A DNA stretch of 64,000 nucleotides from Alphaproteobacteria bacterium (GCA_965261735.1 OZ253470.1:4250980-4314979); one strand, 5' to 3'; positions 7,170 to 50,744 are shown, numbered from the stretch's first letter. Program-made: numbers and translations. The notes: generated from the letters alone by a model not told the origin.

Positions 7170-7186
7170 GGCAAACGCAAAGAGTC

Positions 7187-8041
7187 GTGCCGAAATCCCG
7201 CAAAGCCGGCAGCACCGGCGATAGCCTTCCGGACGGCGCCCACACCGATTTCGGCGACTCGCTGAGCTACGCCGACTATCTCGGCCTCGGCTCGCTGCTG
7301 TCGAGCCAGCACCCGCTCTCGGAGCGCCACGACGAGCTCCTGTTCATCATTATCCACCAGACGACGGAGCTGTGGTTGAAGCTCGCCCTTCATGAGCTCG
7401 GGGCGGCAACGGCGTCGATTCGCGAGGACCGGCTGAAGCCCGCCTTCAAGATGCTGGCACGCTTCTCGCGCATTCAATCGCAGCTCATCCAGTCGTGGGA
7501 CGTGCTGTCGACCTTGACGCCCTCGGACTACATGACCTTTCGTCACGTTCTCGGCCGCGCCTCTGGCTTTCAGTCGCACCAATACCGGCTGATCGAGTTC
7601 GCGCTCGGCAACAAGAACCGCGCCCTGTTGGCGCCGCACCGCCACGACGCCGCCGTCCTGAGCCGCCTCGATGCGGCGCTCAACGCGCCGAGCCTCTACG
7701 ACGAGGTGATCCGCCTGCTGGCGCGGCGCGGGTTCGCACTCGCGCCCGCCTGCGTCGAGCGCGATTGGAGCGCGCCCTACGCGGCGGACGCCTCCGTCTC
7801 CGGCGCCTGGCTCGAGGTTTACCGCGATACCGCGACCCATTGGGACCTTTATGAGCTCGCCGAGGAGCTGGTCGATCTCGAGGATTGGTTCCAGCAATGG
7901 CGCTTTCGCCACGTCACCACGGTCGAGCGCATCATCGGCCACAAGCGCGGCACCGGAGGCACCGCTGGCGTGAGCTACTTGCGAAAGGCGCTGGATGTGC
8001 GCTTCTTCCCTGAATTGTGGGACGTGCGCACGGCTCTCTAG
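7187..8041 (+). CDS. kynA: Tryptophan 2,3-dioxygenase
   Basis: [18 protein letters not shown]...[19 protein letters not shown]...[20 protein letters not shown]: full-length TDO signature. Probable GTG start at 7187, with AAAGAG 4 nt upstream; it follows kynU directly. Confidence 0.8.
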
Positions 8042-8067
8042 CGCGCCCAGTACCTCGGATCGGAAGT

Positions 8068-10714: not shown

Positions 10715-10735
10715 GGCGGCGATGCCGCGAGTACA

Positions 10736-30484: not shown

Positions 30485-30529
30485 GATTGGCGCGTCTTTA
30501 CAACTCGTATGGACCAAGACTGACCGGCT

Positions 30530-34469: not shown

Positions 34470-35263
34470 ACGCTCCGGCGCCGGCCCGGCGCGACCGGCT
34501 GCGGGCAATGCTGGCGGACCTCAAGATGCCGGGCGCGCTGGAGGCCGTCGACGGCATCCTCTCGGACGCCGACGGCGGCACGATCTCGGCGGCCGAGGCC
34601 ATCGAGCAGTTGCTGAACGCCCAGATCGTGCTGCGCAACAACCGCCGTCTCCAGACCGCCATGCGCTCTTCGCGGCTGCCGGCTGTGAAGACGCTCGATC
34701 AGTTCGACTTCGCCTTCCAGCCCAGCATCAAGCGCGAGCAGATCGAGAGCTTGCACGAGCTCGGCTTCCTGGACCGCGGCGAGAACGTGATCCTGCTCGG
34801 CCCACCAGGCGTCGGGAAAACGCACTTGGCGATCAGCCTCGCGATCGCGGCGGCCGAGGCCGGCCGGCGCGTCTACTACGGCACGCTCGCGGCGCTGATC
34901 GAGTCCCTCACCGAGGCCAAGGCCGCCGGCAATCTGACCCGGCGGCTGCGCGTGCTCACCCATCCGGCCCTGCTGGTGGTCGACGAGATCGGCTACCTGC
35001 CGGTCAACCAGGACGGCGCCGTGCTCTTCTTCCAGCTCATCAACGCCCGGCACGAGAGGGCGTCGACTGTGCTGACGTCGAACAAGGGTTTCGAGGACTG
35101 GGGTGGCGTGCTCGGCGACGAGGTCATGGCGGCGGCTCTCATCGACCGCCTTGTGCACCACTGCCACATCGTCAACATCCGGGGCAACAGCTACCGGATG
35201 AAGGAGCATCAGAACCTGCTGCAGTCCGGCTCGGATCGACGCAGGAAAAGAGCCGCCGCGTGA
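34466..35263 (+). CDS. istB: IS21-family helper ATPase IstB
   Basis: 265 aa with Walker A GPPGVGKTHLA and Walker B LLVVDEIGY. ATGA overlap with istA. Confidence 0.85.
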   Translation: MNAPAPARRDRLRAMLADLKMPGALEAVDGILSDADGGTISAAEAIEQLLNAQIVLRNNRRLQTAMRSSRLPAVKTLDQFDFAFQPSIKREQIESLHELGFLDRGENVILLGPPGVGKTHLAISLAIAAAEAGRRVYYGTLAALIESLTEAKAAGNLTRRLRVLTHPALLVVDEIGYLPVNQDGAVLFFQLINARHERASTVLTSNKGFEDWGGVLGDEVMAAALIDRLVHHCHIVNIRGNSYRMKEHQNLLQSGSDRRRKRAAA

Positions 35264-35819
35264 TCGCCGGCTCAAACGGAGACAGGAGCGGTGACACCCG
35301 CCCGCTGTGGATAACCGGGTTGTCGCCGCCAGACTCTTGGCGGTCGCTGCGCCAACCCGGTTACCTACAGCTCGACCAAGTCCGACACCCCAAACACCGC
35401 GTCTGGGGGTACGACCGAACGCTCAAAGTGAGAAATATTTCGATCGACAAAAGTGGGAAATTTTCAGTCGCAATTGACACCTTCCCGCGGCGCAGCTTCC
35501 GCCGTAGTACCGGTCGTCCCTCACCATCAGCACCGTGAACCTGGAACACCGTCTTTGCCAGATCAAACCCAATTGTCGTAATATCCATCGTGGACGCTCC
35601 CTCTGTCTGGGTTGTTCAACACACTCCAGTATGGCTCATCGTGAAGCCGTAGGGGGCTTCCATACCATCAGACGAACTGGATAGGATCTGAAGAACCTGC
35701 AAACCAGGCCTCTCAGGCTGCAAGTTGACGCCACTCGGCCAAGGCGGCGGCTCGGGTTTGTTTGAAAATATCGCGGCGGTTGAGATGGCGTTCGTGGCTG
35801 AAGTGGTTATGGATTGAGG

Positions 35820-36924
35820 CTTGCCTATCCGGTTTACACCCACACCCACTAGGGCTAGAATGGGCGCAACCCGGATATAGGGGAGCGCGCCATGGATGTT
35901 CTCGACCGCGCCGATCTCCCATTCCCGCATTCGCTACCCGAGTTCCAGCGACTTTTCCCCGATGATGCGGCCTGCGCCGCCTACCTGGAGAAAGCCCGCT
36001 GGGGAGACGGCTTTGCCTGCCCGCACTGCGGCACGGCGGGAGAGCCGTTCCACTTTGAAAACCGCCCTGGCGTCCTGCGCTGCCGCAAGTGCCGCCAGAA
36101 CACCGGGCTGACGGTGGGAACAGTGATGGAGCGTAGCCACACTCCGCTGAACGTCTGGTTCTGGGCCGCTTATCTGGTCGCCAGTCAGACGCCCGGCATG
36201 TCCGCCGTGCAGTTTCAGCGGCAACTTGGTCTTTCGCGCTACGAGACGGCCTTTCAAATTCTCCACAAGCTCCGCTCGGGCATGGTGCGGCCCAACCAAG
36301 ACAGGATCGGTGGACAGCCCAAGAACCATGTTGAGATGGACGAAACCTGGGTTGGCGGGCGAACGCGTGGGGAAGGCCGTGGTGTTCACCACAAGGTTCC
36401 CGTCTCCTGTGCCATCGAGGTGCGTCATCGAAAGCCGGGCACCAAGCTCGACAACCGGAAAGACGGACGCTATGCCGGACGCGTTCGGCTCGCCGTCGTG
36501 CTCGACCGTAGCGCCGAGTCGCTCTGTGGGTTCGTCGAGAGCACCGTCGCGCCGCGATCGCTGATCGTTACTGACGATTGGAGCGGCTATGCTGGCCTCG
36601 GGAAGCGCGGCTATGAGCACTTCGCTGTTGCCGAGTGTGGTGATCCAGAGGTTGCCGAGCAATACCTGCCGATCATCCATCTGGTTTTCGCCAACCTGAA
36701 GACGTGGCTGATCGGTATCCACCACGGCGTTAGCCACCAGCACCTACAAGCCTACCTCAACGAGTTCACCTTCCGCTTCAACAGGCGGTTCTACCCGTTC
36801 AACGCCTTCCGCTCATTGCTCGGCATCGCGGGCGACACCTCTGCTCCAACCTATGCCGAGCTTTACTCGGGAGAGTGGCGGCACCCTACATGTAGCGGTC
36901 ATGGGCGTTAACCGGATAGGCAAG
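35820..36924 (+). mobile_element. IS1595-family 'IS-A' copy 3, intact, 1105 bp
   Basis: IRL CTTGCCTATCCGGTTTACACC and IRR GGCGTTAACCGGATAGGCAAG with an intact 339-aa transposase. It directly abuts IS-B copy 2 at 36925. Confidence 0.8.
35892..36911 (+). CDS. IS1595-family transposase (IS-A)
   Basis: 339 aa with zinc ribbon CPHCG...CRKCRQ and a DDE_Tnp_IS1595 domain. It is the reference copy for the other IS-A fragments. Confidence 0.85.
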   Translation: MDVLDRADLPFPHSLPEFQRLFPDDAACAAYLEKARWGDGFACPHCGTAGEPFHFENRPGVLRCRKCRQNTGLTVGTVMERSHTPLNVWFWAAYLVASQTPGMSAVQFQRQLGLSRYETAFQILHKLRSGMVRPNQDRIGGQPKNHVEMDETWVGGRTRGEGRGVHHKVPVSCAIEVRHRKPGTKLDNRKDGRYAGRVRLAVVLDRSAESLCGFVESTVAPRSLIVTDDWSGYAGLGKRGYEHFAVAECGDPEVAEQYLPIIHLVFANLKTWLIGIHHGVSHQHLQAYLNEFTFRFNRRFYPFNAFRSLLGIAGDTSAPTYAELYSGEWRHPTCSGHGR

Positions 36925-37917
36925 GTATGTTCTCAATATGTTCTGTATGAGGGGGTCACGGTTATGGGGTTCAAGGTTGCATCGCGCGTGCGTGGTCTGA
37001 ACGACGAGGCGTTTCGGGAGGCCTTCGGCACCAAGGAGCAGTGCCGCGCGGCGCTGGTCCGGCTGCGCTGGCCGGGCGGCTTCGTCTGCCCCTGCTGCGG
37101 CCATCGGGAGCATTGCGTGTTGGCGGGTCGGGGTCTCTATCAATGCAACCGGTGCAAGAAGCAGACATCGCCCACGGCGGGCACGATCTTCCACGCGACC
37201 AAGCTGCCGCTGACAGTCTGGTTTGCCGCCATCCACCTGATCGTGACGGCGAAGAACGGCATCTCGTCGGTGGAACTCGGCCGCCGTCTCGGGGTCAAGC
37301 AGCCGACGGCCTGGGCCGTGAAGCACAAGATCATGGCGGTGATGGCGCGGCGCGAGGGGGAGACGGCGCTTACGGGGCGGGTCGAGATGGACGACGCCTA
37401 TCTCGGCGGGGTGCGCTCCGGCGGCAAGCGGGGCCGCGGCGCGGCGGGCAAAACGCCCTTCGTGGCGGCGGTCTCGACCAGTCCCGAGGGGCGCCCGCGC
37501 AAGCTGAAGCTGGCGTCGGTCAAGGGCTTCCGCAAGCGCGAGATCGCGCGCGGCGCCAAGCACTGGCTGGCCCCCGGAGCGGCGGTTGTGACGGACGGCC
37601 TGGGCTGCTGGAGCGCACTCGAAGAAGCCGCCTGCAGCCACCAGGCGATCCGCACCGGGTCGGGCCGCCAGGCGGCCCGCATGGCATCGTTCAAATGGGT
37701 GAACACGACGCTCGGCAACATCAAAAGCGCGATCACCGGGACTTATCGCAAGCTCGGCCCCGACCATGCCGGACGCTATCTCGCCAGCTTCGCCTGGCGC
37801 TACAACCGGCGCTATCAACTCCAGACAATGATCCCGCGTTTCGTCCATAGCGCCGCACGAAACCAGCCCATGCCCTATCGCCTCCTCATCGCCGGATGAC
37901 TTTCAGGGATGGGCAGG
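36925..37917 (+). mobile_element. IS1595-family 'IS-B' copy 2, lacking the first ~33 bp of IRL and fused to IS-A
   Basis: Identical to copy 1 from GTATGTTCTCAATATG onward. Right IR GGATGGGCAGG versus GGATAAGCAGG in copy 1. Confidence 0.7.
36964..37899 (+). CDS. IS1595-family transposase (IS-B), copy 2
   Basis: 312 aa from MGFKVASRVRGL...; a few substitutions relative to copy 1 (e.g. GRGAAGK versus GRGVAGK). Confidence 0.8.
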   Translation: MGFKVASRVRGLNDEAFREAFGTKEQCRAALVRLRWPGGFVCPCCGHREHCVLAGRGLYQCNRCKKQTSPTAGTIFHATKLPLTVWFAAIHLIVTAKNGISSVELGRRLGVKQPTAWAVKHKIMAVMARREGETALTGRVEMDDAYLGGVRSGGKRGRGAAGKTPFVAAVSTSPEGRPRKLKLASVKGFRKREIARGAKHWLAPGAAVVTDGLGCWSALEEAACSHQAIRTGSGRQAARMASFKWVNTTLGNIKSAITGTYRKLGPDHAGRYLASFAWRYNRRYQLQTMIPRFVHSAARNQPMPYRLLIAG

Positions 37918-38083
37918 TAAGAATTTGACGCCTCGGACTCTAACGATTTCACTATGTTAGTACGCCGATCGGCGCTGAATACGTACGCCGAATAACACTC
38001 GGGTTCCCGGAGCGTCGGGCCAGCCGGGGCGGGCCGCGGGGGAGCGGAGACGCCGCAACCGTACGGCGCCTCCGCGACCGAGG

Positions 38084-39121
38084 CTAGTTGAGGTGGAAGA
38101 TGCCCTCGTCGGGGACCTTCTCGATGATCCCGAGGTCCTTGTAGATTTGGAACTCGGCCATGAATATGTCCTTGAGGTCCTTGGCCGGCACGGCAAACCA
38201 GCGCATCGTGCGTCCGGCGAAGCCATCCTTGTACATCGAGCGCACGACGTGCTCCTTGAGGCTGGCCCCGCCCGAGCCTTGGGCGCCCGTGATCTTGGTC
38301 TTGGGACCGAGGATCTTGATGGCTTCCTCGATGTCGTTGTCGAGCAGGGCCTGAGCCTCCCTAACGGACTGCAGCACGCCCTTCACGACCTGCGGGTTCT
38401 TATCGATGAAATCGGCGCGCATGGCGGTCGCCTGATACATGCGGCCACGGCCGAGGATTTTGGCCACCTCGTCGTCGGGGAAGAACAGCACCCGGAACTT
38501 GCCGGGAGCCTTGCTGAAGAGGTCGATCGTCTGTCCGGTCAGCACTGTGGCGGCATCGTAGTCGCCGCGCTCGAGCAAGTTGATGGCCTGGATGATGTTG
38601 AGGTTGATGACCTTGACGTCCTTGTCGATATCCAGCCCATGGTGCTTGAGCACCAGCGTCAGGTAGGCCCAGATATACGAGACCTTGGGGAAGCCGACGG
38701 TCTTGCCGCGGAGGTCCGAGATCTTGTTGATGCCGCTGTCGGCCCGCACCACCACGGGCCATGGGTAGGCCGCGCTGCCGCTGACGATACGGATCGGCAC
38801 GCCCTTGTTGTACTGTTTCGCCATGACGTCGAGGCCCGAGAACAGGATGCCGTTGTAGACGCCGGTGAAGAGGTCGTTATAGAACGCGGCGCCCGTGGTG
38901 CGGATCTGCCAGTCCAGCGAGTACCCGTTCTTTTTGTCGTAGCCCTTGGCGAGAATGATCGCGAGGGGGTGCGCACTGACAGAGGGTCCGGGAAAGCTCC
39001 CCGAACTGTAGGAAGTCTGGGCTTGGGCGACCGACGCCCCGAGGACCGCCGCGACGAGCGCGCCAATCCCGCCGAGCACCGCCGAACGCAGCCTCGGCGC
39101 ACGTCCCGTTCTGTTAAACAT
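38084..39121 (-). CDS. ABC-transporter substrate-binding protein, NitT/TauT (NMT1/SsuA-like) family; orphan
   Basis: 345 aa with a signal peptide (ALVAAVLGASVAQA) and a periplasmic SBP fold. No permease or ATPase partner nearby; it is flanked by IS-B and IS630. Confidence 0.7.
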   Translation of the reverse strand: MFNRTGRAPRLRSAVLGGIGALVAAVLGASVAQAQTSYSSGSFPGPSVSAHPLAIILAKGYDKKNGYSLDWQIRTTGAAFYNDLFTGVYNGILFSGLDVMAKQYNKGVPIRIVSGSAAYPWPVVVRADSGINKISDLRGKTVGFPKVSYIWAYLTLVLKHHGLDIDKDVKVINLNIIQAINLLERGDYDAATVLTGQTIDLFSKAPGKFRVLFFPDDEVAKILGRGRMYQATAMRADFIDKNPQVVKGVLQSVREAQALLDNDIEEAIKILGPKTKITGAQGSGGASLKEHVVRSMYKDGFAGRTMRWFAVPAKDLKDIFMAEFQIYKDLGIIEKVPDEGIFHLN

Positions 39122-39228
39122 AGGTACCCTCCCTATCCCGTGGAATTATTAGAAAAGAGTATGACGCGTGGCATCATGCTACAGCGACACTGCGATGCGC
39201 AACCGTGCGGCGGACCGTGCCAGCGCAC

Positions 39229-40338
39229 CTAGTGGATTGATTCCAACGTTTGGAACCCTCTGTTTCGTGCGGCGATGATATGATCGGGGTCGGCTTTCCA
39301 GATGAAGGGTTTTGGGTTTGCGTCATTGTATTCGCGGACAAATCGGTTGATGGCGTCCTGAAGGTCGACGACGGATTGGAAGACGCCGTATTTGAGCCTG
39401 CGCCGCGTTAGTTTGGCGAAGAAGCCCTCGACGGCATTGAGCCACGAGCACGAGGTTGGCGTGAAGTGGAAGGTCCAGCGTGGATGGCGGGCGAGCCAGG
39501 CGCGGACCTTGTCCTTCTTGTGCGCGGCGTAGTTGTCGAGGATGACGTGGACGGCCTTGTCCGTCGGCACCTCGCGCTCGATGCGGTTGAGGAAGCGGAT
39601 GAACTCCTGATGGCGGTGGCGCTGCATGTTCTGTGCGATGACCGTACCGTCCAGCACGTTGAGCGCGGCGAACAGCGTCGTCGTGCCATGCCGTTTGTAA
39701 TCATAGGTCATCGTACCGGCGCGGCCCTTCTTCATCGGCAAGCCGGGTTGGGTGCGGTCGAGCGCCTGGATCTGTGATTTCTCATCAACCGACAGCACCA
39801 CGGCATGGGCCGGCGGATCGACATACAAGCCGACGATATCTGTGAGCTTCTCGGCGAAGGCGGGATCATTGGAGAGCTTGAAGTGCCGCCAGCGGTGCGG
39901 GCTGAGGCCATGGGCCTTCCAGATCGCTTGGACCGTCGACGCCGCGACGCCAGCAACCTTCGCCATCGCGCGCAGCGTCCAGTGGGTCGCCTCGTGCGGC
40001 GGCGCTTGCTGGGTCAGGCGGACGATCTCGGCGACGCGCTCCGGCGGGATCGGCGCTTTGCCAGGCGGACGGGACCTGTCGCGAAGCAAGCCGTTGACAC
40101 CCTCGTGCATGAACCGCTCCTGCCAGCGCCAGACACAGGTCTTGGACTTGCCGGTCTCGGCCATGATCGACGAGTTCCCGAGCCCCTCGTCGCTCTTCAG
40201 GATGATCCGCGCCCGCCAGACATGTTTCTGCGAGCTCTTCGGGTCCGCGACGATAGCTTGCAATCGCTGACGGTCGCCAGACGTGACAGTAAAATGGATG
40301 CCGGTGCGCATAGCACAGACTCGCATGACACCGCACAA
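39229..40338 (-). CDS. IS630-family transposase
   Basis: 369 aa with N-terminal HTH domains and a C-terminal DDE (DD34E-like) catalytic domain. Confidence 0.85.
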   Translation of the reverse strand: MCGVMRVCAMRTGIHFTVTSGDRQRLQAIVADPKSSQKHVWRARIILKSDEGLGNSSIMAETGKSKTCVWRWQERFMHEGVNGLLRDRSRPPGKAPIPPERVAEIVRLTQQAPPHEATHWTLRAMAKVAGVAASTVQAIWKAHGLSPHRWRHFKLSNDPAFAEKLTDIVGLYVDPPAHAVVLSVDEKSQIQALDRTQPGLPMKKGRAGTMTYDYKRHGTTTLFAALNVLDGTVIAQNMQRHRHQEFIRFLNRIEREVPTDKAVHVILDNYAAHKKDKVRAWLARHPRWTFHFTPTSCSWLNAVEGFFAKLTRRRLKYGVFQSVVDLQDAINRFVREYNDANPKPFIWKADPDHIIAARNRGFQTLESIH

Positions 40339-40382
40339 TACGGAATCTCAAATCGGACTCTTTCGTTCCGATCAATCCACTA
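39230..40382 (-). mobile_element. IS630-family element, complete, flanked by TA
   Basis: Terminal IRs TAGTGGATTGAT... at both ends with TA at each junction, as expected for IS630/Tc1-mariner-type elements. Confidence 0.7.
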
Positions 40383-40413
40383 GGATCGATCGCGGGACCG
40401 CTCCAGCGCCCCC

Positions 40414-40975
40414 CTATCGCGCCTCGGAGGCCGTGCGCTCGGTATCGGCGCGGGGCGGCCAGATGAGCGGGAACTGGTCGTGATCGGGGGGAAAGGGATC
40501 GCCGGGCTTGAGGCCGGGGTCGCGCAGCGGTTTCGGCCGCCCCGGGCCGCGCTCGGCGTAGGTCGCGTCGTCGCCCGCGAAACGATAGATGATGGCGCGC
40601 CGCCGCCGGTCGCTTTGGTTGCCGGGCGCCGAGTGAATCGTGAGCAGATGGTTGACGATGCAATCGCCCGGCTCGGTGTCGAAGCCGACGATCCGGTACT
40701 GGTCGCGGGCCGCATCGAAGTCGGGCATCGGGTCGAAACCGTCGCTCAGCTCGTAGGCGTCGGAGCCATCGAAGGGCGCCGCCTCGAACCAGCGTCCCCA
40801 TTTGTGCGAGCCCGTGACCCACTCTACGGCGCCGCTCTCCGCGGTGGCGGTGTCGAGCGAGAGCCACATACCGCAGGCCTGGGAGCCGTCGTACCAGTTG
40901 TAGGGTTGGTCGTGGTGCCACGGCGTCAGCGAGGGCGTGTGCGGCTCTTTGACCAGGATCAGGTCCGCCATCAGG
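40414..40975 (-). pseudogene. Phytanoyl-CoA dioxygenase (PhyH)-family protein, C-terminal roughly two thirds only
   Basis: ...LILVKEPHTPSLTPWHHDQPYNWYDGSQACGMWLSLD...IHSAPGN... has the PhyH 2-His-1-carboxylate region. The N-terminal ~100 aa is replaced by unrelated sequence (the 40414..41190 ORF's N-terminus is read-through). Confidence 0.5.
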
Positions 40976-41089
40976 TTGATGCGCGCCGAGCGCATACAGG
41001 CGGCGGCGATGGCGCCGCTCGGTGACTCGAGGGCGAGCGCCCGGAGCCGGGGACCACGAAGCTCGCTCTTCTCGTCGCCCATCTCAGTG

Positions 41090-41253
41090 CCCCGGGCGGC
41101 GCGACCATCGCCGAACTCTGTAAGGCAACGGGCTGGCAGCCCCATTCGGTTCGAGGCGGGCTCGCCGGTGCGCTGCGACGCAAGGGCCACGTCATCCGGT
41201 CCGAGAAAGAAGGGGGCCAGCGGCGCTACCGCATCGAGGAACCGGTGACATGA
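41090..41253 (+). pseudogene. DUF3489-family gene, C-terminal fragment
   Basis: ...GATIAELCKATGWQPHSVRGGLAGALRRKGHVIRSEKEGGQRRYRIEEPVT* is the conserved DUF3489 C-terminal module; no N-terminus. Its stop overlaps the DUF2924 start (ATGA). Confidence 0.4.
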
Positions 41254-41663
41254 CCGGCGAGGCGCCGCTTGCGGACGAGATCGAGGCGCTCACGCCCCTT
41301 GGTCTCGAAGGGCTTCGAGAGGTTTGGCGCAACCGCTACGGTGTCCCGCCGAAGCTGCGCTCGGCTGCGCTGTTGCGTCATTGTCTGGCCTGGCGGCTGC
41401 AGGCAGAGGCTCTCGGCGGTCTCGATCGTGACACACGGCGCAAGCTCAAGCGCCGCCAGCGGGTCCAGGCAGAAGGTCTTGAGCTCGGGATCGGGACCAC
41501 GCTGCAGCGCGAATGGCAAGGGCAGATAGTCCAGGTCACGGTCGAAGAAGAGGGGTTTCGCCACGGGGGTCAACTCTTCAAGAGCCTCTCCGCGGCCGCG
41601 ACCGCGATCGCGGGCACGCGTTGGAATGGCCCGCGCTTCTTCGGCCTCCGATCCGCCAAATGA
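41250..41663 (+). CDS. DUF2924-domain protein
   Basis: 137 aa (LEGLREVWRNRYGVPPKLRSAALLRHCLAWRLQAEALGGLD...). This family typically sits just upstream of large serine recombinases in alphaproteobacterial integrative elements. Its stop overlaps the recombinase ATG. Confidence 0.6.
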   Translation: MTGEAPLADEIEALTPLGLEGLREVWRNRYGVPPKLRSAALLRHCLAWRLQAEALGGLDRDTRRKLKRRQRVQAEGLELGIGTTLQREWQGQIVQVTVEEEGFRHGGQLFKSLSAAATAIAGTRWNGPRFFGLRSAK

Positions 41664-42358
41664 GCCAACCCCGTCTCCACTGTGCCCTCTATACGAGGAA
41701 GAGTAGCGAGGAAGGCCTCGAGCAGGCGTTCAACTCCCTCGATGCGCAGCGCGAAGCCTGCGCGGCGTATGTGAAGAGCCAGGCCGGCGAAGGTTGGAGA
41801 GCAGTTCGGGCCCGCTACGACGATGGCGGCTTCTCCGGCGCGTCCATGGAGCGCCCGGCGCTCAAGCGGCTTCTCTGCGACATCGTTGTTGTCCGCGCCG
41901 AGCTCCACGATCAGTCGCTGCACTGCTTGCTGCCGATCGACCGGATCGTCGCGATGCGCCAGCGCCTCGAGCCGCACGAACGCCTCGAGCCGGATCCGGC
42001 CGATGCGCGTCTCGCCAGACTGCATCTGCCCCTTGTCCGGCGTCGTGGCGAGACCTGGGTTCTCAAGGGCCCAAGTGCGGGACACATGCCGGACCCTGTT
42101 CTGGTCAAGGCGCTCCGCTCCGCACACGCCATGCTGCACCACGATGATGGCGGATTGCCCGTGCTCGTCACAGCGCCGGATACGCCCTATCGCCGCCAGC
42201 TCGTTCGCCTGGCCTTTCTGGCGCCGGAGATCCAAAGAGCGATTGTTGAAGGTCGCCAATCCGCAGGCCTGACACTGGCACAGCTCCTCAAGGGCCCGAT
42301 GCCGCTCGACTGGCCGCAACAGGCCGTCCGAATCGGCATTGCGGCATCGCTGGAATAG
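41660..42358 (+). pseudogene. Large serine recombinase, internally deleted or degenerate (232 aa versus the usual ~550 aa)
   Basis: It retains the resolvase catalytic N-terminus (CALYTRKSSEEGLEQAFNSLDAQREACAAYV...YDDGGFSGASMERPALKRLLCDI) and the conserved C-terminal tail (...RLAFLAPEIQRAIVEGRQSAGLTLAQLLKGPMPLDWPQQ). The recombinase/zinc-ribbon middle is missing. Confidence 0.55.
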
Positions 42359-42458
42359 GGACCAGCACCCACATCCCGCTCACTCGACTACGGCAAGACG
42401 GGCCGGATTATTTCCTGTTCCCTTCATTTGCTTCCCTGATATCGACTGCCCTTCCCCC

Positions 42459-42625
42459 TGTTTTGCAGAAAAGACCCCCTGTTTTGCAGAAAAGAACCCC
42501 TGTTCTGCAGAAAAGAACCTCTGTTCTGCAGAAAAGAACCCCTGTTCTGCAGAAAAGAACCCCTGTTCTGCAGAAAAGAACCCCTGTTCTGCAGAAAAGA
42601 CCCCCTGTTCTGCAGAAAAACAGGA
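42459..42625. repeat. Tandem array, ~8 x 21-bp unit TGTTCTGCAGAAAAGAACCCC; each unit contains the 10-bp perfect palindrome TTCTGCAGAA
   Basis: Head-to-tail units at 42459, 42480, 42501, 42522, 42543, 42564, 42585 and a partial eighth at 42606. Unit variants are TTTTGCAG versus TTCTGCAG and GACCCC versus GAACCC. There are no intervening spacers. All six reading frames are open through it. Confidence 0.85.
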
Positions 42626-42639
42626 AAGTTCAGAAGTCA

Positions 42640-43130
42640 TTGATAAAAAAAGATAATTTCTTCATTTTGGTCGGCAGTTCGCTACAATCTCCCTGTTTTG
42701 AGGCCGTAATCGCAAAGATTCCCTGTTGCCACCAAACTCACCCTTGCATCGCGCTCGCGGAGACCGCACGCCGCGAAGCCCGGCAATGGCCGGAAATGCT
42801 CCCGGGTTCAGGAGCTCAGAATTCCGTTTGACCGCGAAACGGGCCCTGTTTCCCGCGGCTTGGCCGAGCTATGCGATGAAGAGACTGCTTCGCCGGGGTG
42901 GCTGGCTGTGCAGGCAGTCTCCCGCGAACTCGTCTCTGAGGCCAATTCCCTGTTTAACAGGGAAAATACAGGGAAATTTTCTCTTTTGCAGGGATTCAGA
43001 AGCTTTCCTGTGTTCAAAACATGGCAGAAACGCTAGTGTTTTCGGTCCAATTCCCTAAACCATGTAACAGGGAATTTATTTGAACGAACAGGGATTTTGT
43101 TCGGGAGAACAGGGAATTCTACTGGTCCAC
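42640..43130. promoter_or_regulatory. AT-richer non-coding region seeded with AACAGGGA(A/T) motifs in both orientations; putative iteron/centromere/recombination site
   Basis: Motifs at about 42691 (rc), 42721 (rc), 42838 (rc), the palindrome TTCCCTGTTTAACAGGGAA at 42949, ACAGGGAAA at 42972, and three direct repeats AACAGGGAWTT at 43067, 43088 and 43109, exactly 21 bp apart. The repeat units at 42459-42625 each carry the same core (CCCCTGTT is the reverse complement of AACAGGGG). Confidence 0.55.
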
Positions 43131-43139
43131 GGCGGCAGC

Positions 43140-43862
43140 CGAAACATGATCGCGCCCGGCGCCGGCGCCGGGTCGATGTGGTTCATGAGTTGGCGGGAGC
43201 CTGAGGCCGCTTGGTTGTTGCACGGCATCTTCGACGTGCAGCCCTGTTCGAAGGACTTCGAGGCGAAGTTCGCCGACGTGGCGACCGCGTACGGGTCGCC
43301 GCTCCCACCACGGGCCCGGCAGGAGATCCTGCGGATTGCGGAACGGCTGGCACTCGTGGAAGAGCAGATCGCCCGGGTCGAGGCCGAACGTAATGCGTTC
43401 GTGCTGTCTGGAGAGGCAACCTCGATGGTGGATGCGCCCGAGGGAAGCCAAGCGCGGGCGGCGGCGAAGATCGCGGCGTTGACCCGGCTGAAGGCGATCG
43501 GTCCGAACGACGCAACCATCCTGACGCACGAGGTCTTCTACCGCGGGTTCCGCAATCGTCGCGAACTCGCGAGCTGGGTCGGTGTGACGCCAGCCCCTTG
43601 GGCGAGCGGAGACACGTACCGCGACCAGGGGATCAGCCGCGACGGTCCGGCATGGATCCGGGCACAGCTCATCCAAATGGCGTGGCGTTGGCTGCGCTAT
43701 CAGCCTGATAGCGCGCTCAGCAAGTGGTTCAACGAGCGCACTGCGGGGTCCCGCGGGCGGATCCGCCGGGTGATGATCGTGGCGCTCGCCCGCAAGCTGC
43801 TCATCGCGCTCTGGCGGTTCTCCGAGACCGGTCTCGTGCCGACTAGCGCCACGCTCGTCTGA
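43140..43862 (+). mobile_element. IS110-family transposase gene lacking the N-terminal DEDD domain (fragment)
   Basis: The C-terminal half ...ILTHEVFYRGFRNRRELASWVGVTPAPWASGDTYRDQGISRDGPAWIRAQLIQMAWRW...MIVALARKLLIALWRF matches the IS110 Transposase_20 region. There is no catalytic N-terminus. Confidence 0.55.
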
Positions 43863-44180
43863 TCGCGAGACCGCGCTGTTCCAGACCGGTCGGACGCGGC
43901 CGGGGCTGGGCCGGGTGGCGAGTGGCCGAAGCTCTTCCAGGCTGAAACACGCTGACCGAGAGATGGTCCCCGCCTCCGGAACGCTGCACCCGCAGCAAGC
44001 GGGATCGAGGGACGGTTCCGGCGGACCGTCGCCGAAAAACCTCCCGGATGAGAGTTGGGTATGTGCACAAGCGCGACCGATGCGAAAAGCGTTCCGACCT
44101 GGCTACAAGGCAATCAACCATCAATCCGATCAACCCAGAAAGCGAGTTCGCCATGCAGTAAACCCAACCAACTTCTCCGC

Positions 44181-44215
44181 TTGACTGCGTCTGCCCTCAT
44201 AAGAGCGAGAGTTTG
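44181..44215 (+). promoter_or_regulatory. Possible sigma-70-like promoter (TTGACT, 17-19 bp, TAAGAG) upstream of the ParB-like gene
   Basis: CTTGACTGCGTCTGCCCTCATAAGAGCG lies about 80 bp upstream of the ATG at 44294. Sequence-only guess. Confidence 0.25.
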
Positions 44216-44293
44216 AGCCAAAGGCGGGCGAGGGCGGATGCCGAAGAGGGTGCCCCCGCCCGGTTCCGCATTCACGCAATCCCGGAGACTGAA

Positions 44294-45340
44294 ATGCACG
44301 ACCCCGAACGCGATATCTCTGACATCCCGCTGTCCCAACTCGAACTCTCGCCCGACAATGTGCGCAAGACGCCGGCGGATGATTCGGCCTTCACCGAGCT
44401 CAAGGCCTCGATCGCCGCCCACGGGCTGCTCGAGAACCTGATTGCCCGTTCCATGGGACCCGGCGCGGATGGCCCCGGGCGCTACGCGGTGATCGCCGGC
44501 GGACGGCGGCTTGCCGCGATGCAGGCGCTGGCCGCCGAGGGCACGCTGGACGAGGACCACCCCGTGCCCTGCCGCATGATCGGAAGCATCGTGGCGGCCG
44601 AAGAGGTTTCGCTGGCCGAGAACAGTGTCCGCGCCGCAATGCACACGGCCGATCAGGTCGAAGCCTTCCGCCGCCTGGCCGATGCGGGTAGCACGGCGGG
44701 CGCCATCGCGGCGCGCTTCGGGGTCTCGGAGCGCACCGTGGAGAAGCGGCTGCGGCTCGGCAACGCCGCACCGGTACTGCTCGAGGCCTACCGCGCGGGC
44801 GACATCGATCTGGAAACATTGATGGCCTTTGCCGTCACCACGGATCAGGCTCGCCAAAGCACGGTCTGGGCGGCGGTGAGCCAGCAGGGCTACCGGCCCG
44901 GCGCCTGGCAGATCAAGCGCCTGCTGACCGAGGACCGGGTTCCGGCTACGTCCGCCATCGCGCGTTTCGTCGGCATCGAGGCTTACGAGGCGGCGGGCGG
45001 CCAGATCGACCGCGACCTGTTCGCCGAGGAGGACGAGCGGGGGATCTGGTTCGACGATCCCGATCTGTTGAACAAGCTCGCCATGGACAACCTACAGGCC
45101 GTGGCGAGGGAACTGGAGACGCGCGGGAAATGGGCCGAGGCGCGGCTCGACGTGGACTGGAACGCTACCGCGAGCTTTGGGCGGGTCGGCCGAGCCGACG
45201 GACGAGGAGAAGGCCGAGATCGAACGCTTGAGGACCCGCAACGACGAACTCGCCAATATGGAGGACGACGGCTGGACCGAAGAATTGGTCGAGGAAGCCG
45301 ATGCCAACGAGACGCGCCTGGACGAGATCGAGGTTCATCG
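44294..45340 (+). pseudogene. ParB-like nuclease-domain protein (ICE/plasmid-type), disrupted by two frameshifts
   Basis: N-terminal ParB/Srx domain (LSQLELSPDNVRKTP...AHGLLENLIARS...YAVIAGGRRLAAMQAL), then EAYRAGDIDLETLMAF... The frame then shifts at about 45180 to the coiled-coil segment EPTDEEKAEIERLRTRNDELANMEDDGWTEELVEEADANETRLDEIE, and again at about 45340. Confidence 0.6.
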
Positions 45341-45777
45341 ACAGCGATCTCTATCTGCCCTCGATGCACTCGCAGGGCATCGATGCCATCGCCATCATCA
45401 TCGATACCTCCGCCTCGCTGCCGGGCGAAACGCTGGCCCTGTTCTGGGCCGAGGTCCGCGAGATCGCCGCCGAACTGCAACCGAACAGCATCTATGTCCT
45501 TCAGGTCGACGCGGTGCTGCAGGACGCGGCCCAATATCCCGCCGGGGAACTACCGGACAGCATCACGATCAAGGGACGCGGCGGGACCGATTTCCGGCCA
45601 GGCTTCGCATGGCTCCATGAGCATGGGGTGCATCCAAGCTGCTGCCTCTACCTGACCGACATGGAATGTGACAGCTACCCCGAGGCCGCGCCCCCATATC
45701 CTGTGGCTTGGGTCGTTTGGGGCGGCGATCGATACCGCCAGCCCTGGGGCGAGCGCATCGACATCGGACCAGCCTGA
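45340..45777 (+). pseudogene. VWA-like (DUF2201-type) domain fragment fused downstream of the ParB-like gene
   Basis: IIIDTSASLPGE has the MIDAS DxSxS motif; ...GRGGTDFRPGF...LYLTDMECD follows. This is only the C-terminal VWA module of the usual metallopeptidase-VWA protein. Confidence 0.5.
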
Positions 45778-45988
45778 TACCGCGGGCCGCGCCCGCATAA
45801 TCCTTCATATCCGTGCCTCCGCCCGCAAGGAGGCGGGTTGCGCTGAGGCCGGGTGAACCGGGGCCGGGAGAGCGATGACACCGGCTTAACCGGCGGCGAA
45901 CGCGCCCGCGCGTCCGCCCGTCGTCCAGCCCAATCCCACATTCCCAGCGAATGCCGATGCCTCAGGCATCCGCTCCAAGCCGGCCGCG

Positions 45989-46395
45989 TTGCTGGCTGCC
46001 GCAATCGCTCTGCTTCTCGAGCTTGAGGCAGGCCGAGCGCTTGATGCAAAGACCCTGCGCGAAGCCATGAGCGCGGCCTTCGGCGCCAGCGACGGCCAAG
46101 GCGCCTGGGTCTGGAAGGACGCCTACGAAGCGGTCGAAGCCGCAATGGTGCTGTTCATCCAGCGTTACGGCCGCCTCATGCGCCGCGAGGCGGGCGCCGG
46201 ACAGGGATCCGCCGCCGCCATGCTCGCCATGCTGGAAACCCTCGCGGCCCTGGAGCCATCCCAGACGAGGCGGTCGGAAGAACAGCTTGCCCTACAGCAG
46301 TTCTCCACCCCCTTGCCGCTCGCCTACGCCGCGCTGCAAGCCGCCGCCATCCGACCCGGCGACATCGTGCTGGAGCCCTCGGCCGGCACCGGCGG
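45989..46395 (+). pseudogene. N-terminal fragment of the large ICE-type SAM-dependent DNA methyltransferase/helicase
   Basis: LALQQFSTPLPLAYAALQAAAIRPGDIVLEPSAGTGG carries the FSTP and EPSAGTG methyltransferase motifs. The sequence diverges to junk right after SAGTGG and stops at 46456. The conserved large protein of alphaproteobacterial ICEs is about 1400 aa. Confidence 0.5.
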
Positions 46396-46559
46396 TCACG
46401 AAGCGCCGGTCAGTCGCGGCTATCTTCCAGCCGTCCGTCAGGCCGGACTGATGTAAACGGCCTCTGTGACCTGGTGGGAGGGTCCGACAGGCGCTCTATA
46501 TTGCAAGAGAACCTTAGTGACAGTGCGGCGTCTCTTTTCCGTTGGTGTCTCGGCGTCTC

Positions 46560-47461
46560 GATTGGCGCGTCTTTACAACTCGTATGGACCAAGACTGACC
46601 GGCTTCACTCCTTGCGCGGCAGAAACAACATCGGCACGAAATAGGCGGTAAACAGCGTGAAGGCGACAAACCAACTGCCGGCGGTTGCCCAGAGCAGACT
46701 TAGAGCGGGCACGACCTCGAAGGCTGCGCGTGTGCAGACCGCCAGCGTAGCGAAACCGTATATCGCGACAACCCATGGTCCAGCGTGGAGGTCGCGCCCG
46801 GTATGGCCGAGAACCGCGCGGGTCATGACGGCCAGGGTCATCGTCCCGATCGCGCCGAGTGTAAGTACATGCAGCGCCAACGGCTCCATCACCCAGTCTA
46901 CGAGCATCGAGGCCCCGAGAAGGCCGAGGCCCAATGCAAGCCAGAAGTAGCCGGCATGCAACACAGTCACAAGCGGCTCGGCTGCCGTCCTCCAGCCCCG
47001 CCATCGTGCCAGCCGGACGAGGTTCAATGCCCCTGCTAACGTTAGGAGAATGCCGGAAAGCGGGATAGGCGCCGATCCCACCCAGGCCGCGAGCGCAACC
47101 GCTGTCACGGCGAGCGTCGTTTGGTCGAACCGGCCCATCGGCGCTGTGATATTCGGGCCCGCTCGCCGCTCGAACCAGTTGTGCGTGAAGCTCGGAACGA
47201 TGCGCCCGCCGATCAACGTTATTAACAGCGACATGACGGCGATGGAGAGCCGAACACCCGCCTCTCCCACATGAGCCACGCCCGCCGCGGAGAGATGGAA
47301 CAGCACGTTGGCGGTCAACATCAGTATAAGCCCGGCGAGGACCGGCAGATTGCGCCAGTTGCGGCCCGCAACGATCGCGTTACCGACAAGAACCGAGAGA
47401 ACTCCCAGATAGGCAAGATCGGCGACCGCCGTTGGCATTGGTCCAGACTGCGCCTCCCCAC
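46560..47461. repeat. 902-bp segmental duplication of 30485-31386, covering the 3' 286 codons of nnrS plus its downstream flank
   Basis: Identical at every position I compared by eye. The duplication boundary (GATTGGCGCG...) coincides exactly with the outer end of IS903-like copy 1 at 30485. The distal end is cut by IS903-like copy 2 at 47462. Confidence 0.8.
46605..47461 (-). pseudogene. nnrS: nnrS second copy, 5'-truncated by an IS903-like insertion
   Basis: ORF 46605..47546 is identical to nnrS residues ~114-399. Its N-terminus is fused to IS-derived sequence. Confidence 0.75.
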
Positions 47462-48518
47462 GGCTTTGGTGCATGGAGCCGCGATGGTGTGATTGCCCAT
47501 TCCCCGGTTGGTTAGCGGATCCTGATTGTGTTTGGTTTCGCCGCACGGATAGAGCGATTGAGTGCGTCGATCTGCATGGCGATTTCGGTTTGTTGGTATT
47601 GGAATGTGCGAGCGTTGAGCTTGCCGCCGTTGAGCCTCTTGACGCGCTCTCTCAATCCGTAGCCCTGTCGTTTCTGCCAGTTCATTCTTCCCTTCGACGC
47701 GATCTCCGCCGCATGGTGCTCCCGTTCCGATCCGCCATGAGGCGTGTCCGGGGGAGGAATGGATGTGGCGCGTGGCGGGATGATGATTTCAGGTGGTGAA
47801 TTCGGTGGCCGAGCTTCTCGGATCGCTTTTGTCACGGGCTCCCCGTCATAGGCGCCGTCGGCAAACACGCGCCGGATCATCCCACCGGAACCGGCGACCA
47901 GCGGTCCCGCCATCGTCGCATCGGCCGTGTCGTCACCGGTCAGTTCATGCGTCCGGATCTCGCTGCTGGCCGGGTCAACCGAGATATGCAGCTTGCGCCA
48001 CGAGCGCCGCGTTTCACCGTGCTTGGCGCGAGCCCACTCGCCAGCGCCAAAGAATTTCAGGCCCGTGGAATCCAGCACGATATCCGTAGACCGCTTGTTC
48101 GTGCTGGTTTCCACAACGACATCCACCGTTCGCCGCCGCCGCGACAGCGTGGTGTGATCCGGCACCGGCAGATCGCACCCCATCAAGTCCACGAGGGAAC
48201 GCACAAAGCCTTCCGTCTGGCGCAGCGGCAATCTGAAGACCACCCCCAGCATCAGTGTCGTGGAAATCGCCAACTCTGAAAACCGCCGCTGGCCACCAGG
48301 AGTTCGCCGCTTGGCTGCGTCCATTGCTCCAGGGCGCTCTCATCAATCCAGAAACGAATGTCGCCGCGCCGAACCAAACCACGGTCATAATCCGGCCAGT
48401 TCATGACCCGGTACTTGGCTCTGGGGATATGGTGGCGACGCGATGCGTGGAACTTGAAAGGCATGACAAACTCTCAAAGACGGAAGCGGAGCCAGGTATA
48501 CTAATCCTTAGGTCCATG
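47462..48518 (-). mobile_element. IS903-group element copy 2, degenerate (1057 bp; transposase frameshifted, 24-bp deletion)
   Basis: Both IRs are present. The transposase is split into 48252..48464 (N-terminal 55 aa, then frameshift) and 47512..48324, and lacks ALGETAMA relative to the other copies. Confidence 0.7.
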
Positions 48519-48932
48519 CACCAAAGCCCATCCACTTCGCTTCGGCCTGTCCGGATGCCGCCCTGTTCCGCCTGCTGGCCGGGCGCCTCGCCGCCGCGGG
48601 CCCCTGATCGCCGGGGCGCCGTGCCCCGCCAACCCGAGCCCATTCAACCCCAAACCCCGACACCGCCAACCTCAAACCCCGGCACCGCAAGGCGCCGAAC
48701 ACAAACCTTCGCGCGCTCAAAATCAACCGATAAACTCTGCCTCCGATGAATAAGTCAGGCTAGCTGCCGAGCAGGGACTTGCCGACGCCCAGACTTGGCT
48801 CGGCCTCATGTACGCCAAACGGTTGTTAGGCCTTGCGGAATAAGCCTGTATTCAGCGGTTTATGGCACTACACAGGAACTCTCGACGGAGATCAGAACTC
48901 AAACATATTTGGATGTTATCTGGAGGGGCACT

Positions 48933-49265
48933 ATGGGAATACATCGAATTTTCACGGGAAACGACGGTGAAAGCCACATGGAGGAGCTACGATTAGAGGA
49001 GCACCCTGAATTGGGCGCATTGACCGATGTTTCCGAGGTCCGGGTCCAGGAGTTTGACGGAAGCAGAAATAGGGACTTCAATCCGCTACCCGAACGCAGG
49101 CTGATCATTCATCTTTCCGGCGAAGTCGAGATTAGAACTAGTGATGGCGCTAAGCAAGTGTTCAGAGCCGGAGACATTAGACTTATGGAAGATGTTAGCG
49201 GTCGCGGTCACGCCCACGTTGACCTCAGCCCGTCATCCGCCGTTTACGTCATCCTGAATGACTAG
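48933..49265 (+). CDS. Hypothetical 110-aa protein in an AT-rich island
   Basis: ATG at 48933 with GGAGGGG upstream. MGIHRIFTGNDGESHMEELRLEEHPELG...IIHLSGEVEIRTSDGAKQVFRAGDIRLMED...; it could be a small cupin-like beta-barrel but has no motif I recognise. The surrounding 48.8-49.7 kb has markedly lower GC than the window. Confidence 0.4.
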   Translation: MGIHRIFTGNDGESHMEELRLEEHPELGALTDVSEVRVQEFDGSRNRDFNPLPERRLIIHLSGEVEIRTSDGAKQVFRAGDIRLMEDVSGRGHAHVDLSPSSAVYVILND

Positions 49266-49725
49266 GACCGCCGCCTCTCTCTCCGCGCTTTCGTTTTCGC
49301 GTCGCCACTCATCCACACTGGTGTTGATGGTGATGGACGGGCGGGAGCTACGTCAGAGATACGCCCGCAAGCGCTGGAGTTTGATTGAATTCGCTTGCGT
49401 TTCGCTTACGGGAGAAATGAAAACAAATAAATTATAAATTAAATCAACGGTATGAAATCATGCATCACGAACCCGGTGAGATCGTCGTCCCAATAGAACT
49501 TGTCCGGTTTCCTCACGAAAATCGAGCGCCGATATGGCGTCTGGAGAGTGCTGCTCGCGTTTTGTGATACCTGTCGCCATGACGGTTTTCCCTTGGTAAC
49601 CTAACAAGAACATAAAGCGAATTTATTCCACAGAATAGTGCAAAAAGTGCTCATTCGTCAGGTCAGGTAAACGAAGTGGCCGTGGTAGGCAAGGTCAAGC
49701 ACATCTCTGGATCGGGCGCACTCTC

Positions 49726-49920
49726 GTTAACGGCGGAGGAATAATGCACCACGCGAGGCGGCCGAGCGGTTCGGTCGTGGCGGCGCAGAATTGCGCCACC
49801 TATGTCCCCTTGTCGGTTATAGCGAGGGCCGGGAGATTTGGGGCGTGGAGCTTTATGTGGCGGTTCGTCTGGCGGTTGTCAATGAGGGTCTGAGCCCACA
49901 CTGCCGGCGACGGGCGGGGC
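49726..49920 (+). mobile_element. IS21-family type-2 left end plus IstA start, truncated at ~49920
   Basis: CGTTAACGGCGGAGGAATAATGCACCACGCGAGGCGGCC...MYGVELYVAVRLAVVNEGL..., a diverged second copy of the 28966 fragment. It is cut by an IS3-family fragment. Confidence 0.55.
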
Positions 49921-50272
49921 TTAGCAATTTCCCTCAAGCGCCTCTTTCAAGATCAACTTATCCAACGTCAGATCCGAGATCGCCTTCCGGAGACGGCCAT
50001 TCTCCTTCTCCAGGTCCTTCAGACGCTTGGCCTGGTCAGTACGAAGGCCGCCATATTCCTTGCGCCAGCGATAGTAACTCTGCTCCGATACGCCGAGCGT
50101 GCGGCAAGCTTGACCAACGGACTGGCCCTGCGCCAAGGCCACCTCGGCTTCGCGCAACATGCTGATAATCTGTTCTGGGGTGTAGCGTTTACGGCTCATT
50201 TTGTCCTCCTTTCGGGGGGGCAAAATGCGCCAAACTCTCTTAACAAATCTGGACCACTTTTAGGGGTCACTC
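49921..50272 (-). mobile_element. IS3-family fragment: left IR plus orfA (92 aa); orfB absent
   Basis: OrfA MSRKRYTPEQIISMLREAEVALAQGQSVGQACRTLGVSEQSYYRWRKEYGG...LKDLEKENGRLRKAI (HTH and leucine zipper). IR TGGAGTGACCCCTAAAAGTGGTCCAGATTTG at 50244-50274. Confidence 0.65.
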
Positions 50273-50279
50273 CAGATGA

Positions 50280-50480
50280 CCCAAAAACCTATCCGCCATC
50301 CGAAGCGGTGGCCGGGGCCTTTTCCGTTTCAGGACAGCTACCTGCTGTCTCAGGGCAAGGATTTCTGTGTGGAGCGCCGCGCGGCCCGCGAAGATTTCGA
50401 TGATCTTATGCATGCCGGAAAAGGTATCCGGTGGTGATGAACAATTCTAAGAATTCTGCGATAGATGGAATAAATGGGAG
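50280..50480 (+). mobile_element. IS427-like (IS5-family) fragment related to 26600-26700
   Basis: CAGGGCAAGGATTTCTGTGTGGAGCGCCGCGCGGCCCGCGAAGATTTCGATGATCTTATGCATGCCGG is the reverse complement of 26601-26668 with a few mismatches. Confidence 0.5.
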
Positions 50481-50486
50481 GGACAG

Positions 50487-50744
50487 CTATTCAGCCTCCA
50501 ATCCAAAATGCTCGATGACACTTGGATCGATCACACCCGCATGCAGCGCCAGTAAAACGAGACGCGCATCCGGTCCATCTTCGGTGCCAAGCGCGACGAC
50601 GACCCGGGCCTCGACCGCGTTGACGAGCGTGGCATCGTTGACGGCCTCGAAGTCGCTTCGACCGAGGATACAGTACGCCAATAGGAGTGAGGCATGGGCC
50701 GAGGCAGCCTCGGTGACCGGGCCGATCTCCTTGAGCAGCTTTAG
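50487..50744 (-). pseudogene. C-terminal 85 codons of an unknown gene, 5'-truncated by the IS5/IS1182 element
   Basis: ...LLKEIGPVTEAASAHASLLLAYCILGRSDFEAVNDATLVNAVEARVVVALGTEDGPDARLVLLALHAGVIDPSVIEHFGLEAE*. The first 16 codons of ORF 50487..50792 are IS-terminal sequence, and the same IS end fused to different DNA recurs at 63921. Confidence 0.3.

Follow-up and report, generated by a model that had tools for sequence, protein, structure and literature searches.

Large serine recombinases (LSRs), such as the TP901-1 integrase, the phiC31/Bxb1-type integrases, SprA of SPbeta and TnpX, are generally held to need just short att sites and a directionality factor. Minimal phage satellites of the PICI/PICMI type are small site-specific integrative islands that carry an integrase, small regulators and a few phage-derived genes. 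In Wolbachia phage WO (gp30/gp31) and Acidithiobacillus phage AcaML1 a DUF2924 gene is located directly upstream of the gene for a resolvase-family integrase; the adjacency of DUF2924 and a serine integrase has been described for phage WO (PMC10299305), and DUF2924 is described as a partial match to the RAMA DNA-binding domain (PMC11342252). The subject of this study is a 64-kb stretch of an Alphaproteobacteria bacterium, referred to below as the window, in which the remains of a DUF3489-DUF2924-LSR gene set are followed by fragments of ParB-like, DUF2201 and strawberry-notch (Sno) genes. A preliminary description had taken these fragments together as the decayed backbone of a single integrative and conjugative or integrative and mobilizable element (ICE/IME).

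Comparison with related loci points to another history. The interval probably consists of two unrelated dead remnants, which were brought side by side by deletions and by the activity of insertion sequences (IS) in an IS-rich region. Remnant A (41046-42908) is, as judged from gene order and similarity, the right-hand half of a compact, putatively integrative element of ~5.3 kb with six genes. Remnant B (43217-46393), the other part of the same reading, would be the residue of a ParB-like/DUF2201/Sno cluster that was cut down by deletions at short microhomologies, with a truncated IS110 in front. Mapped against close relatives, the breakpoints are found at 41046, 41885/6, 42908, 43217, 45332/4 and 46393. 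The general idea of decay was right and the preliminary observation largely correct: the listed gene fragments are real, most of them being confirmed by Pfam (DUF3489, DUF2924, Resolvase, Transposase_20, ParB_N/HTH and the DUF2201 VWA-like domain), and what they represent are immobilised, eroding remnants of mobile elements in an IS-rich region. As such the finding is an ordinary one.

The fragments were checked by six-frame open reading frames (ORFs) and Pfam scans. Relatives of remnant A were collected by scanning the DUF2924 protein against one genome per species, which yielded 80 loci with DUF2924 plus a recombinase, each covered to +/-10 kb; gene partners were located in these loci by targeted tblastn, and tRNA genes by ARAGORN. 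The breakpoints of remnant A were mapped by blastn and tblastn against the closest relatives (L001, L002 and L003), which have an intact recombinase of 529 aa. Remnant B was compared with five less decayed contigs (L083-L087), in which the DUF2924/LSR module is lacking.

The survey bears directly on the proposed backbone. In this view DUF3489-DUF2924-recombinase and ParB-VWA-methylase/helicase belonged to one ICE, which has collapsed by internal deletions and IS insertions; none of the 80 loci with DUF2924 and a recombinase contains a homolog of the 723-aa ParB-like protein, of DUF2201 or of Sno within the 10 kb on either side (tblastn). The LSR module ends at a tRNA gene, with host genes 3 kb upstream, and the relatives of remnant B are found without it. 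In the window itself an att core lies between the two parts, as do an inverted second P arm and the IS110 fragment, and the Pfam-annotated ORFs of the 64 kb revealed no gene for a relaxase, a coupling protein or a type IV secretion system (T4SS). Of the hallmarks of an ICE, a functional integrase or recombinase and bounding attL/attR sites are lacking here, and no conjugation module was found. It can be said for a single ICE that both parts derive from mobile elements and are adjacent on the same strand, that conjugative plasmids commonly carry ParB-like and Sno genes, and that in one relative (L023) another island appears to have accreted beside an LSR element. We nevertheless consider this view largely refuted and a single ICE unlikely. 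The ParB-like, DUF2201 and Sno fragments are better taken as a separate remnant, because they are absent near the 80 LSR loci and resemble accessory regions of conjugative plasmids. The alignment to relatives that had been proposed as a check did map the deletion breakpoints (with L001-L003 and L083-L087), but the two halves did not turn out to be parts of one backbone.

Several points weigh against the reading as two remnants, or limit it. A very large element with both modules far apart would be compatible with a survey that covers 10 kb to each side of every relative. Many of the reference contigs are low-coverage long-read assemblies (3x-11x) with frameshifts of their own and many split genes, so that for ParB, DUF2201 and Sno the lengths taken as "intact" in the closest relatives are uncertain. 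For the six-gene element neither an empty site nor a circular form was observed. Any role of DUF2924, DUF3489, DUF5681 or the CCCTGTT sites (discussed below) is putative, and the predicted model of DUF2924 gave no structural match.

The element from which remnant A appears to be derived recurs across many alphaproteobacterial orders (e.g. L064:7111-12526 and L003:6897-12489). Its intact layout is attL, DUF5681b (-), DUF5681a (-), a ParB_N-N6/N4 methyltransferase (-), DUF3489 (+), DUF2924 (+), LSR (+), the P arm, the att core and a tRNA 3' end. The methyltransferase gene was found upstream, divergent and at a fixed position in 63 of the 80 loci, and the two DUF5681 genes, likewise upstream at fixed positions, in 48 and 43 of them. 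In most loci a minus-strand tRNA gene follows 350-500 bp past the recombinase stop; the targets are tRNA-Ser of several anticodons and, in L002 and L003, tRNA-Gln(CTG), with a P arm of ~420 bp between the LSR gene and the tRNA-Ser or tRNA-Gln 3' end in the intact relatives. Directly beyond the DUF5681 genes there are host genes, such as the nos cluster, a CRP regulator, acyl-CoA carboxylase and sulfatases, and a Pfam scan of the left flanks of three intact relatives revealed ordinary host genes and no conjugation genes. Pairwise similarity between elements of different genomes is confined to ~5.3-5.4 kb (L063 and L064, for instance, are similar over 7111-12526 only), and in L003 the 11-bp direct repeat CCGGGGTGGCT occurs at both ends of the element. 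It is because of the tRNA junction, the host flanks and this limit of similarity that we regard the DUF3489-DUF2924-LSR trio as the integration module of a tRNA-targeting element and not of an ICE. Differing genomic contexts, the presence of several copies in some genomes and the short flanking repeats suggest that the element may be mobile. The Acidocella metagenome-assembled genome OZ240683.1 has four copies (L029, L037, L069 and L073).

With the LSR integrases named above the intact relatives share the Resolvase and Recombinase domains and the position of the LSR gene next to the attachment site; they match the TP901-1 integrase with E=2e-25, and other LSR structures were matched by sequence. 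The family differs from these integrases in the coupling of the LSR to DUF3489 and DUF2924, in the use of a tRNA 3' end as target and in a conserved, phased CCCTGTT array on one arm; the window copy, lacking aa 76-372, is dead. Phage WO and AcaML1 have genomes of 30-90 kb and are related at ~30% identity, whereas the element described here measures 5.3 kb and has neither structural nor lysis genes. In intact copies the LSR would integrate and excise the element at the tRNA 3' end, DUF3489 and DUF2924, presumably translationally coupled to it, could act as accessory or regulatory DNA-binding factors, and the phased sites may assemble a nucleoprotein complex on one arm.

In the window the homology begins at ~41025-41046 and not at 40975, where the element had been thought to start, similarity to the element relatives setting in at ~41046. 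The DUF3489 gene has indeed lost its 5' end: the frame is open from 41026 without an ATG, GTG or TTG before the last three codons, residues 31-97 of the L003 protein (98 aa) align with 41047-41247 in tblastn, and the Pfam match at 41095-41250 corresponds to profile positions 21-68 of 68. Both ATGA start/stop overlaps, at 41250 and 41660, are present as reported. The DUF2924 gene does not fit the statement that every gene is truncated, as it has the length of its ~1500 homologs (137-138 aa) and is 99% identical to its counterpart in L001.

The loss of the central part of the recombinase could be traced to a single in-frame deletion of 891 bp, which removed aa 76-372 of 529. Window positions 41046-41885 align by blastn with 9797-10636, and 41886-42290 with 11528-11932, of L001-L003, and at the joint GACATCG is followed by TTGTTG (41885/41886). 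Intact relatives have the Resolvase domain at 9-161 and the Recombinase domain at 185-280, whereas the window ORF retains Resolvase profile positions 2-59 of 145 only; the deletion has taken away the Recombinase domain together with most of the catalytic domain and some of the C-terminal region. The full set of Resolvase, Recombinase and C-terminal DNA-binding region in one ORF is present in L001-L003 and not in the window, whose gene is a homologous pseudogene and not a functional member. No homologs of DUF5681 or of the ParB-methyltransferase were found anywhere in the window. Of the full gene set in its fixed order, the window retains the DUF3489 fragment, DUF2924 and the deleted LSR and nothing else; the three genes on the left have gone, as has attL, whose side is now taken by a PhyH (phytanoyl-CoA dioxygenase) fragment. 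Since the left genes, attL, the DUF3489 start, aa 76-372 of the LSR and the tRNA have all gone, this copy cannot move.

Features of remnants A and B and of their flanks (positions in the window)
Feature	Coordinates	Strand	Remarks
PhyH gene, 5'-truncated; left flank, abutting remnant A	40414..41040	-	Pfam PhyH positions 34-213 of 213 only
DUF3489 pseudogene	41026..41253	+	~30 first codons and start codon missing; stop TGA at 41251-41253
DUF2924 gene, intact, 137 aa	41250..41663	+	Pfam 2-135 of 135, E=1.5e-37; ATGA overlaps at both ends
LSR gene with in-frame 891-bp deletion	41660..42358	+	keeps aa 1-75 and 373-529 of 529
P arm, recombinase stop to crossover	42359..42908	+	21-bp array, single CCCTGTT sites, att core
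Putative inverted partial P arm of a second, divergent family member	42910..43145	-	sites at 43108, 43087, 43066, 42967 and 42956
IS110-family transposase fragment	43217..43862	+	Pfam Transposase_20 only; DEDD catalytic domain missing
ParB-like gene, N-terminal half (relatives ~720 aa)	44294..45332	+	11-bp deletion at 45187
DUF2201 gene, 3' part, VWA-like domain only	45334..45777	+	joined out of frame to ParB
Sno methylase/helicase-type gene, first 135 codons	45989..46393	+	ORF runs to 46456 in unrelated sequence
Duplicated NnrS 3' part; right flank	46559-47461	-	copy of 30484-31385; 903 bp, 99.9% identity
IS5/IS903-group copy cutting the NnrS duplicate	47461-48532	-	inverted

An accumulation of CCCTGTT sites follows the recombinase stop. 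In the whole window the motif is matched 24 times against 5.2 expected, and 16 of these matches fall within ~800 bp (42456-43248). The tandem array itself extends over 42455-42619 (7.9 copies of 21 bp), with sites from 42456 to 42603 in 21-bp phase; single sites follow at 42691 and 42721, 30 bp apart, and at 42844. The att core CCGGGGTGGCT at 42893-42903 is then followed by GGCTG (42904-42908), matching the 3' end of tRNA-Gln. In 68 related loci the stretch from the LSR stop to the tRNA has 5.5 plus-strand CCCTGTT sites per kb, compared with 0.09 per kb elsewhere (~60-fold), the array region lying at relative positions +1950..+2500; such sites were found at the left end of none of the loci. 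The arrangement is conserved as well: about four sites in 21-22-bp phase come straight after the stop codon and are followed by a gap of ~100 bp, then by two sites 30 bp apart (in some loci an 11-bp pair) and a gap of ~125-135 bp, with a last single site ~60 bp from the tRNA. The extended consensus of a site is an A-rich stretch followed by TTCCCTGTT, and the arrayed sites read AAAwTTCCCTGTT.

The window keeps this architecture, which is also that of L002 and L003, with the core following site 42844 by 64 bp. Its phased block has eight copies, against ~4 in L081, a contig of a related strain described below, and three to four in L001-L003, and the array is thus an expanded version of the conserved CCCTGTT arrangement. 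The sites may be binding sites for a protein encoded by the element. A functional arm-type array of this kind would be unexpected in LSRs. If the sites are bound by DUF2924, DUF3489 or the recombinase, the two DUFs would gain a function, and the element would offer an example of accessory-site control in an LSR system. Two gut-virome scaffolds had no comparable tandem arrays.

L002 and L003 resemble the window as far as the tRNA-Gln 3' end and no further. ARAGORN found no tRNA gene in the window, and only the 5 nt after the core are left of the tRNA junction. The segment that follows, 42910-43145, takes the place of the tRNA and resembles P arms in inverted orientation: 25 of its 27 BLAST matches to the P arms of other loci (E <= 0.01) are on the minus strand, and its sites are spaced by 21, 21, 99 and 11 bp. 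The best match of the real segment reached 51 bits, with 36 minus-strand matches, compared with maxima of 39.7 bits and 17 matches in motif-preserving shuffles. Our reading is that a second element, divergent from the first, contributed part of its P arm here and that a deletion probably brought the two head-to-head. The joint, after 5 nt of the tRNA-Gln 3' end, has created a perfect palindrome, TTCCCTGTTTAACAGGGAA, at 42946-42964, and L001 has the same joint, up to 42980. An interpretation of 42908-43125 as the other attP arm, i.e. as part of an unintegrated or circular form, was rejected: the attL of L002 and L003 has no such sequence, CCCTGTT is lacking at the left ends in all loci, and the segment matches inverted P arms.

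That DUF2924 is the only intact gene, nearly identical to its L001 counterpart, could also mean that it was partially domesticated, perhaps together with the in-frame mini-recombinase, and kept for a residual function; it might, for example, bind the CCCTGTT arrays that related elements carry, or hinder the recombination of these elements. The deletion in the LSR indeed leaves an open ORF of 232 codons with the catalytic-serine region, and the CCCTGTT array was not only retained but has even grown to eight copies. Against this, the gene upstream has no start and no promoter region, which makes expression of the operon doubtful, and recent decay accounts equally well for the high identity. We regard domestication as improbable.

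For the intact family a further reading may be considered, in which the 5.3-kb elements form a widespread, apparently undescribed family at the 3' ends of tRNA-Ser and tRNA-Gln genes (in Sphingomonadales, Rhodobacterales, Hyphomicrobiales, Rhodospirillales and Sneathiellales), the one-sided, helically phased CCCTGTT array is a functional arm-type protein-binding array and the elements, as minimal satellites, perhaps make use of a helper phage or a gene transfer agent. All six element proteins have PHROG relatives, and the satellite idea is based on these phage-family relatives together with a gut-virome scaffold of the same layout. Like the PICI/PICMI-type satellites the elements are small (~5-6 kb) and carry genes with phage relatives, a likeness that amounts to a functional analogy only; they differ in that their integrase is a serine and not a tyrosine recombinase. 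As a whole this reading is tentative and rather doubtful. The six-gene family with its phased site array appears to be undescribed in the searched literature, where DUF2924, DUF3489 and DUF5681 receive incidental mentions only, and its mechanism as given here is a proposed one. The human-gut virome scaffold L089 (MT839917.1, 40% GC) has at 778-3745 a divergent arrangement, with DUF2924 and LSR on one side and the ParB-methyltransferase and DUF5681 on the other, both pairs reading outwards; the module is therefore not restricted to the Alphaproteobacteria.

Two further observations concern the ends of intact elements. In L023 some 6.6 kb (L023:12374-18982) separate the right end of the six-gene element from the tRNA-Ser gene, to which the element is directly adjacent in L024; this looks as if another island had accreted at that att site. 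Just outside the left end of the L003 element (L003:6810-6850) there is a tRNA-like fragment with the T-arm GGATTTGAACC, not called by ARAGORN, which may be an older att remnant.

Remnant B opens with the IS110 fragment, in which the combination of DEDD_Tnp_IS110 and Transposase_20 that marks this family, present in the complete copy at 32409-33365, is no longer found. Contig L085 aligns to 43217-45331, which shows that the IS110 fragment was already joined in one unit with the ParB-like gene elsewhere; in L085 the ParB gene continues past the point where it is broken off in the window. Pfam recognises ParB_N and HTH domains in the protein frame 44213-45655, and the part that is left corresponds to aa 29 to ~370 of a plasmid protein of 723 aa. 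As had been described, the gene is joined to the VWA half alone of the next gene. From 45334 the window aligns to the DUF2201 genes of L083 and L084, in which the DUF2201_N metallopeptidase domain is present; in the window that domain is missing and the VWA-like domain is kept (Pfam match at 45301-45777). At the joint (45332/45334) GAGATCGAGG is fused out of frame to TTCATCGAC, with a short ATCGA microhomology. L086 and L087 have another ParB::DUF2201 joint ~70 bp away (L086:11050-11120), with a microhomology of 10 bp and in frame, which gives rise to a ParB_N+DUF2201 protein of 503 aa (P0122). Two joints so close together in different contigs suggest a recurrent deletion at the same place.

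The Sno-type gene, the "methyltransferase" of the preliminary description, ends as was stated at ~135 aa, where the Sno homology stops. Its ORF (45989-46456) has no Pfam match; residues 22-135 match the N-termini of plasmid Sno proteins, and the codons correspond to aa 43-159 of a plasmid protein of 1465 aa, the homology ending at 46393. The AAA_34 and Helicase_C_4 domains of that protein are located at 433-1184, beyond the matched part, and are absent from the window.

The relatives of the ParB-like, DUF2201 and Sno genes are mostly found on plasmids predicted to be conjugative and sit in accessory regions beside SSB, toprim and DUF2493 genes, so that a conjugative-element origin of remnant B is a reasonable supposition; a cluster of this kind is typical of such regions on conjugative plasmids and in ICEs. 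An example is plasmid NZ_CP065363.1 of Ruegeria sp. SCSIO 43209, which has the ParB-like and Sno genes in the same order and on one strand, as in the window, the ParB-like N-terminal half being 48% and the Sno N-terminus 61-63% identical. On the plasmid these genes encode proteins of 723 and 1465 aa, with five small genes and no DUF2201 between them, whereas the window has kept ~350 and 135 codons with a DUF2201 fragment in between, and genes for replication, partition or transfer are absent. In none of the contigs compared were ParB, DUF2201 and Sno intact and next to each other. A megablast search of the whole interval against plasmids gave just three short matches, the collection holding no close intact plasmid reference.

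The reality of these defects can be judged from L081, a metagenome contig in ENA from a different assembly, which encodes exactly the same DUF2924 protein and is 99.5-99.9% identical to 35478-50542 of the window. The IS21 insertion at 33324-35478 occurs in the window only, an IS256 copy inside the IS630 transposase gene (L081:7657-9050) occurs in L081 only, and the 21-bp array of L081 is ~4 units shorter; L081 hence represents a different strain. It shares every large breakpoint with the window, and within the region of interest the sole coding difference is the 11-bp deletion at 45187. Of the two frameshifts ascribed to the ParB-like gene this deletion is a true one and a genuine strain polymorphism; the second is in fact the ParB/DUF2201 deletion joint at 45332/45334.

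Sequencing error in low-coverage long reads, with an element that is really intact, would be suggested by the coverage of the related contigs (3x-11x) and their split genes, as well as by the 11-bp indel that distinguishes the window from L081. Such an indel is, however, not typical of sequencing errors, and the defects consist of an 891-bp deletion and kilobase-scale joints rather than homopolymer errors. Individual joints were also found in L085 and L001, and since the large breakpoints are identical in an independent strain with other IS content and another array copy number, assembly error is untenable for the truncations. As an explanation of the whole it is extremely improbable.

The finding itself is of little weight, being a further case of mobile-element debris in an IS-saturated region. 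It cautions against taking adjacent fragments as one "backbone". It also offers a frame of reference: where the DUF3489-DUF2924-recombinase trio is met, it can be identified as the integration module of an element that is compact, recurrent and targeted to tRNA genes, and whose repeat architecture beside the attachment site is deeply conserved.

Between the mapped remnants, 43146-43216 and 46394-46558 have no match in the window, in the loci or in Rfam. An Rfam scan of 40500-47000 gave two sub-threshold chance matches and no known RNA, the IS110 fragment and the repeat region included.

On the right, 165 bases lie between the end of the Sno homology (46393) and a duplicated part of NnrS. The left edge of this second NnrS copy is the exact IS5/NnrS boundary of the first. 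The part of the window from 24 to 64 kb contains at least 15 IS copies or fragments, with truncated cellular genes among them; the families are IS256, IS5/IS903 (four copies), IS110, IS21, IS1595 (two copies), IS630, IS3, IS1182-like and UPF0236. Metabolic genes and further IS copies occupy the first 24 kb.

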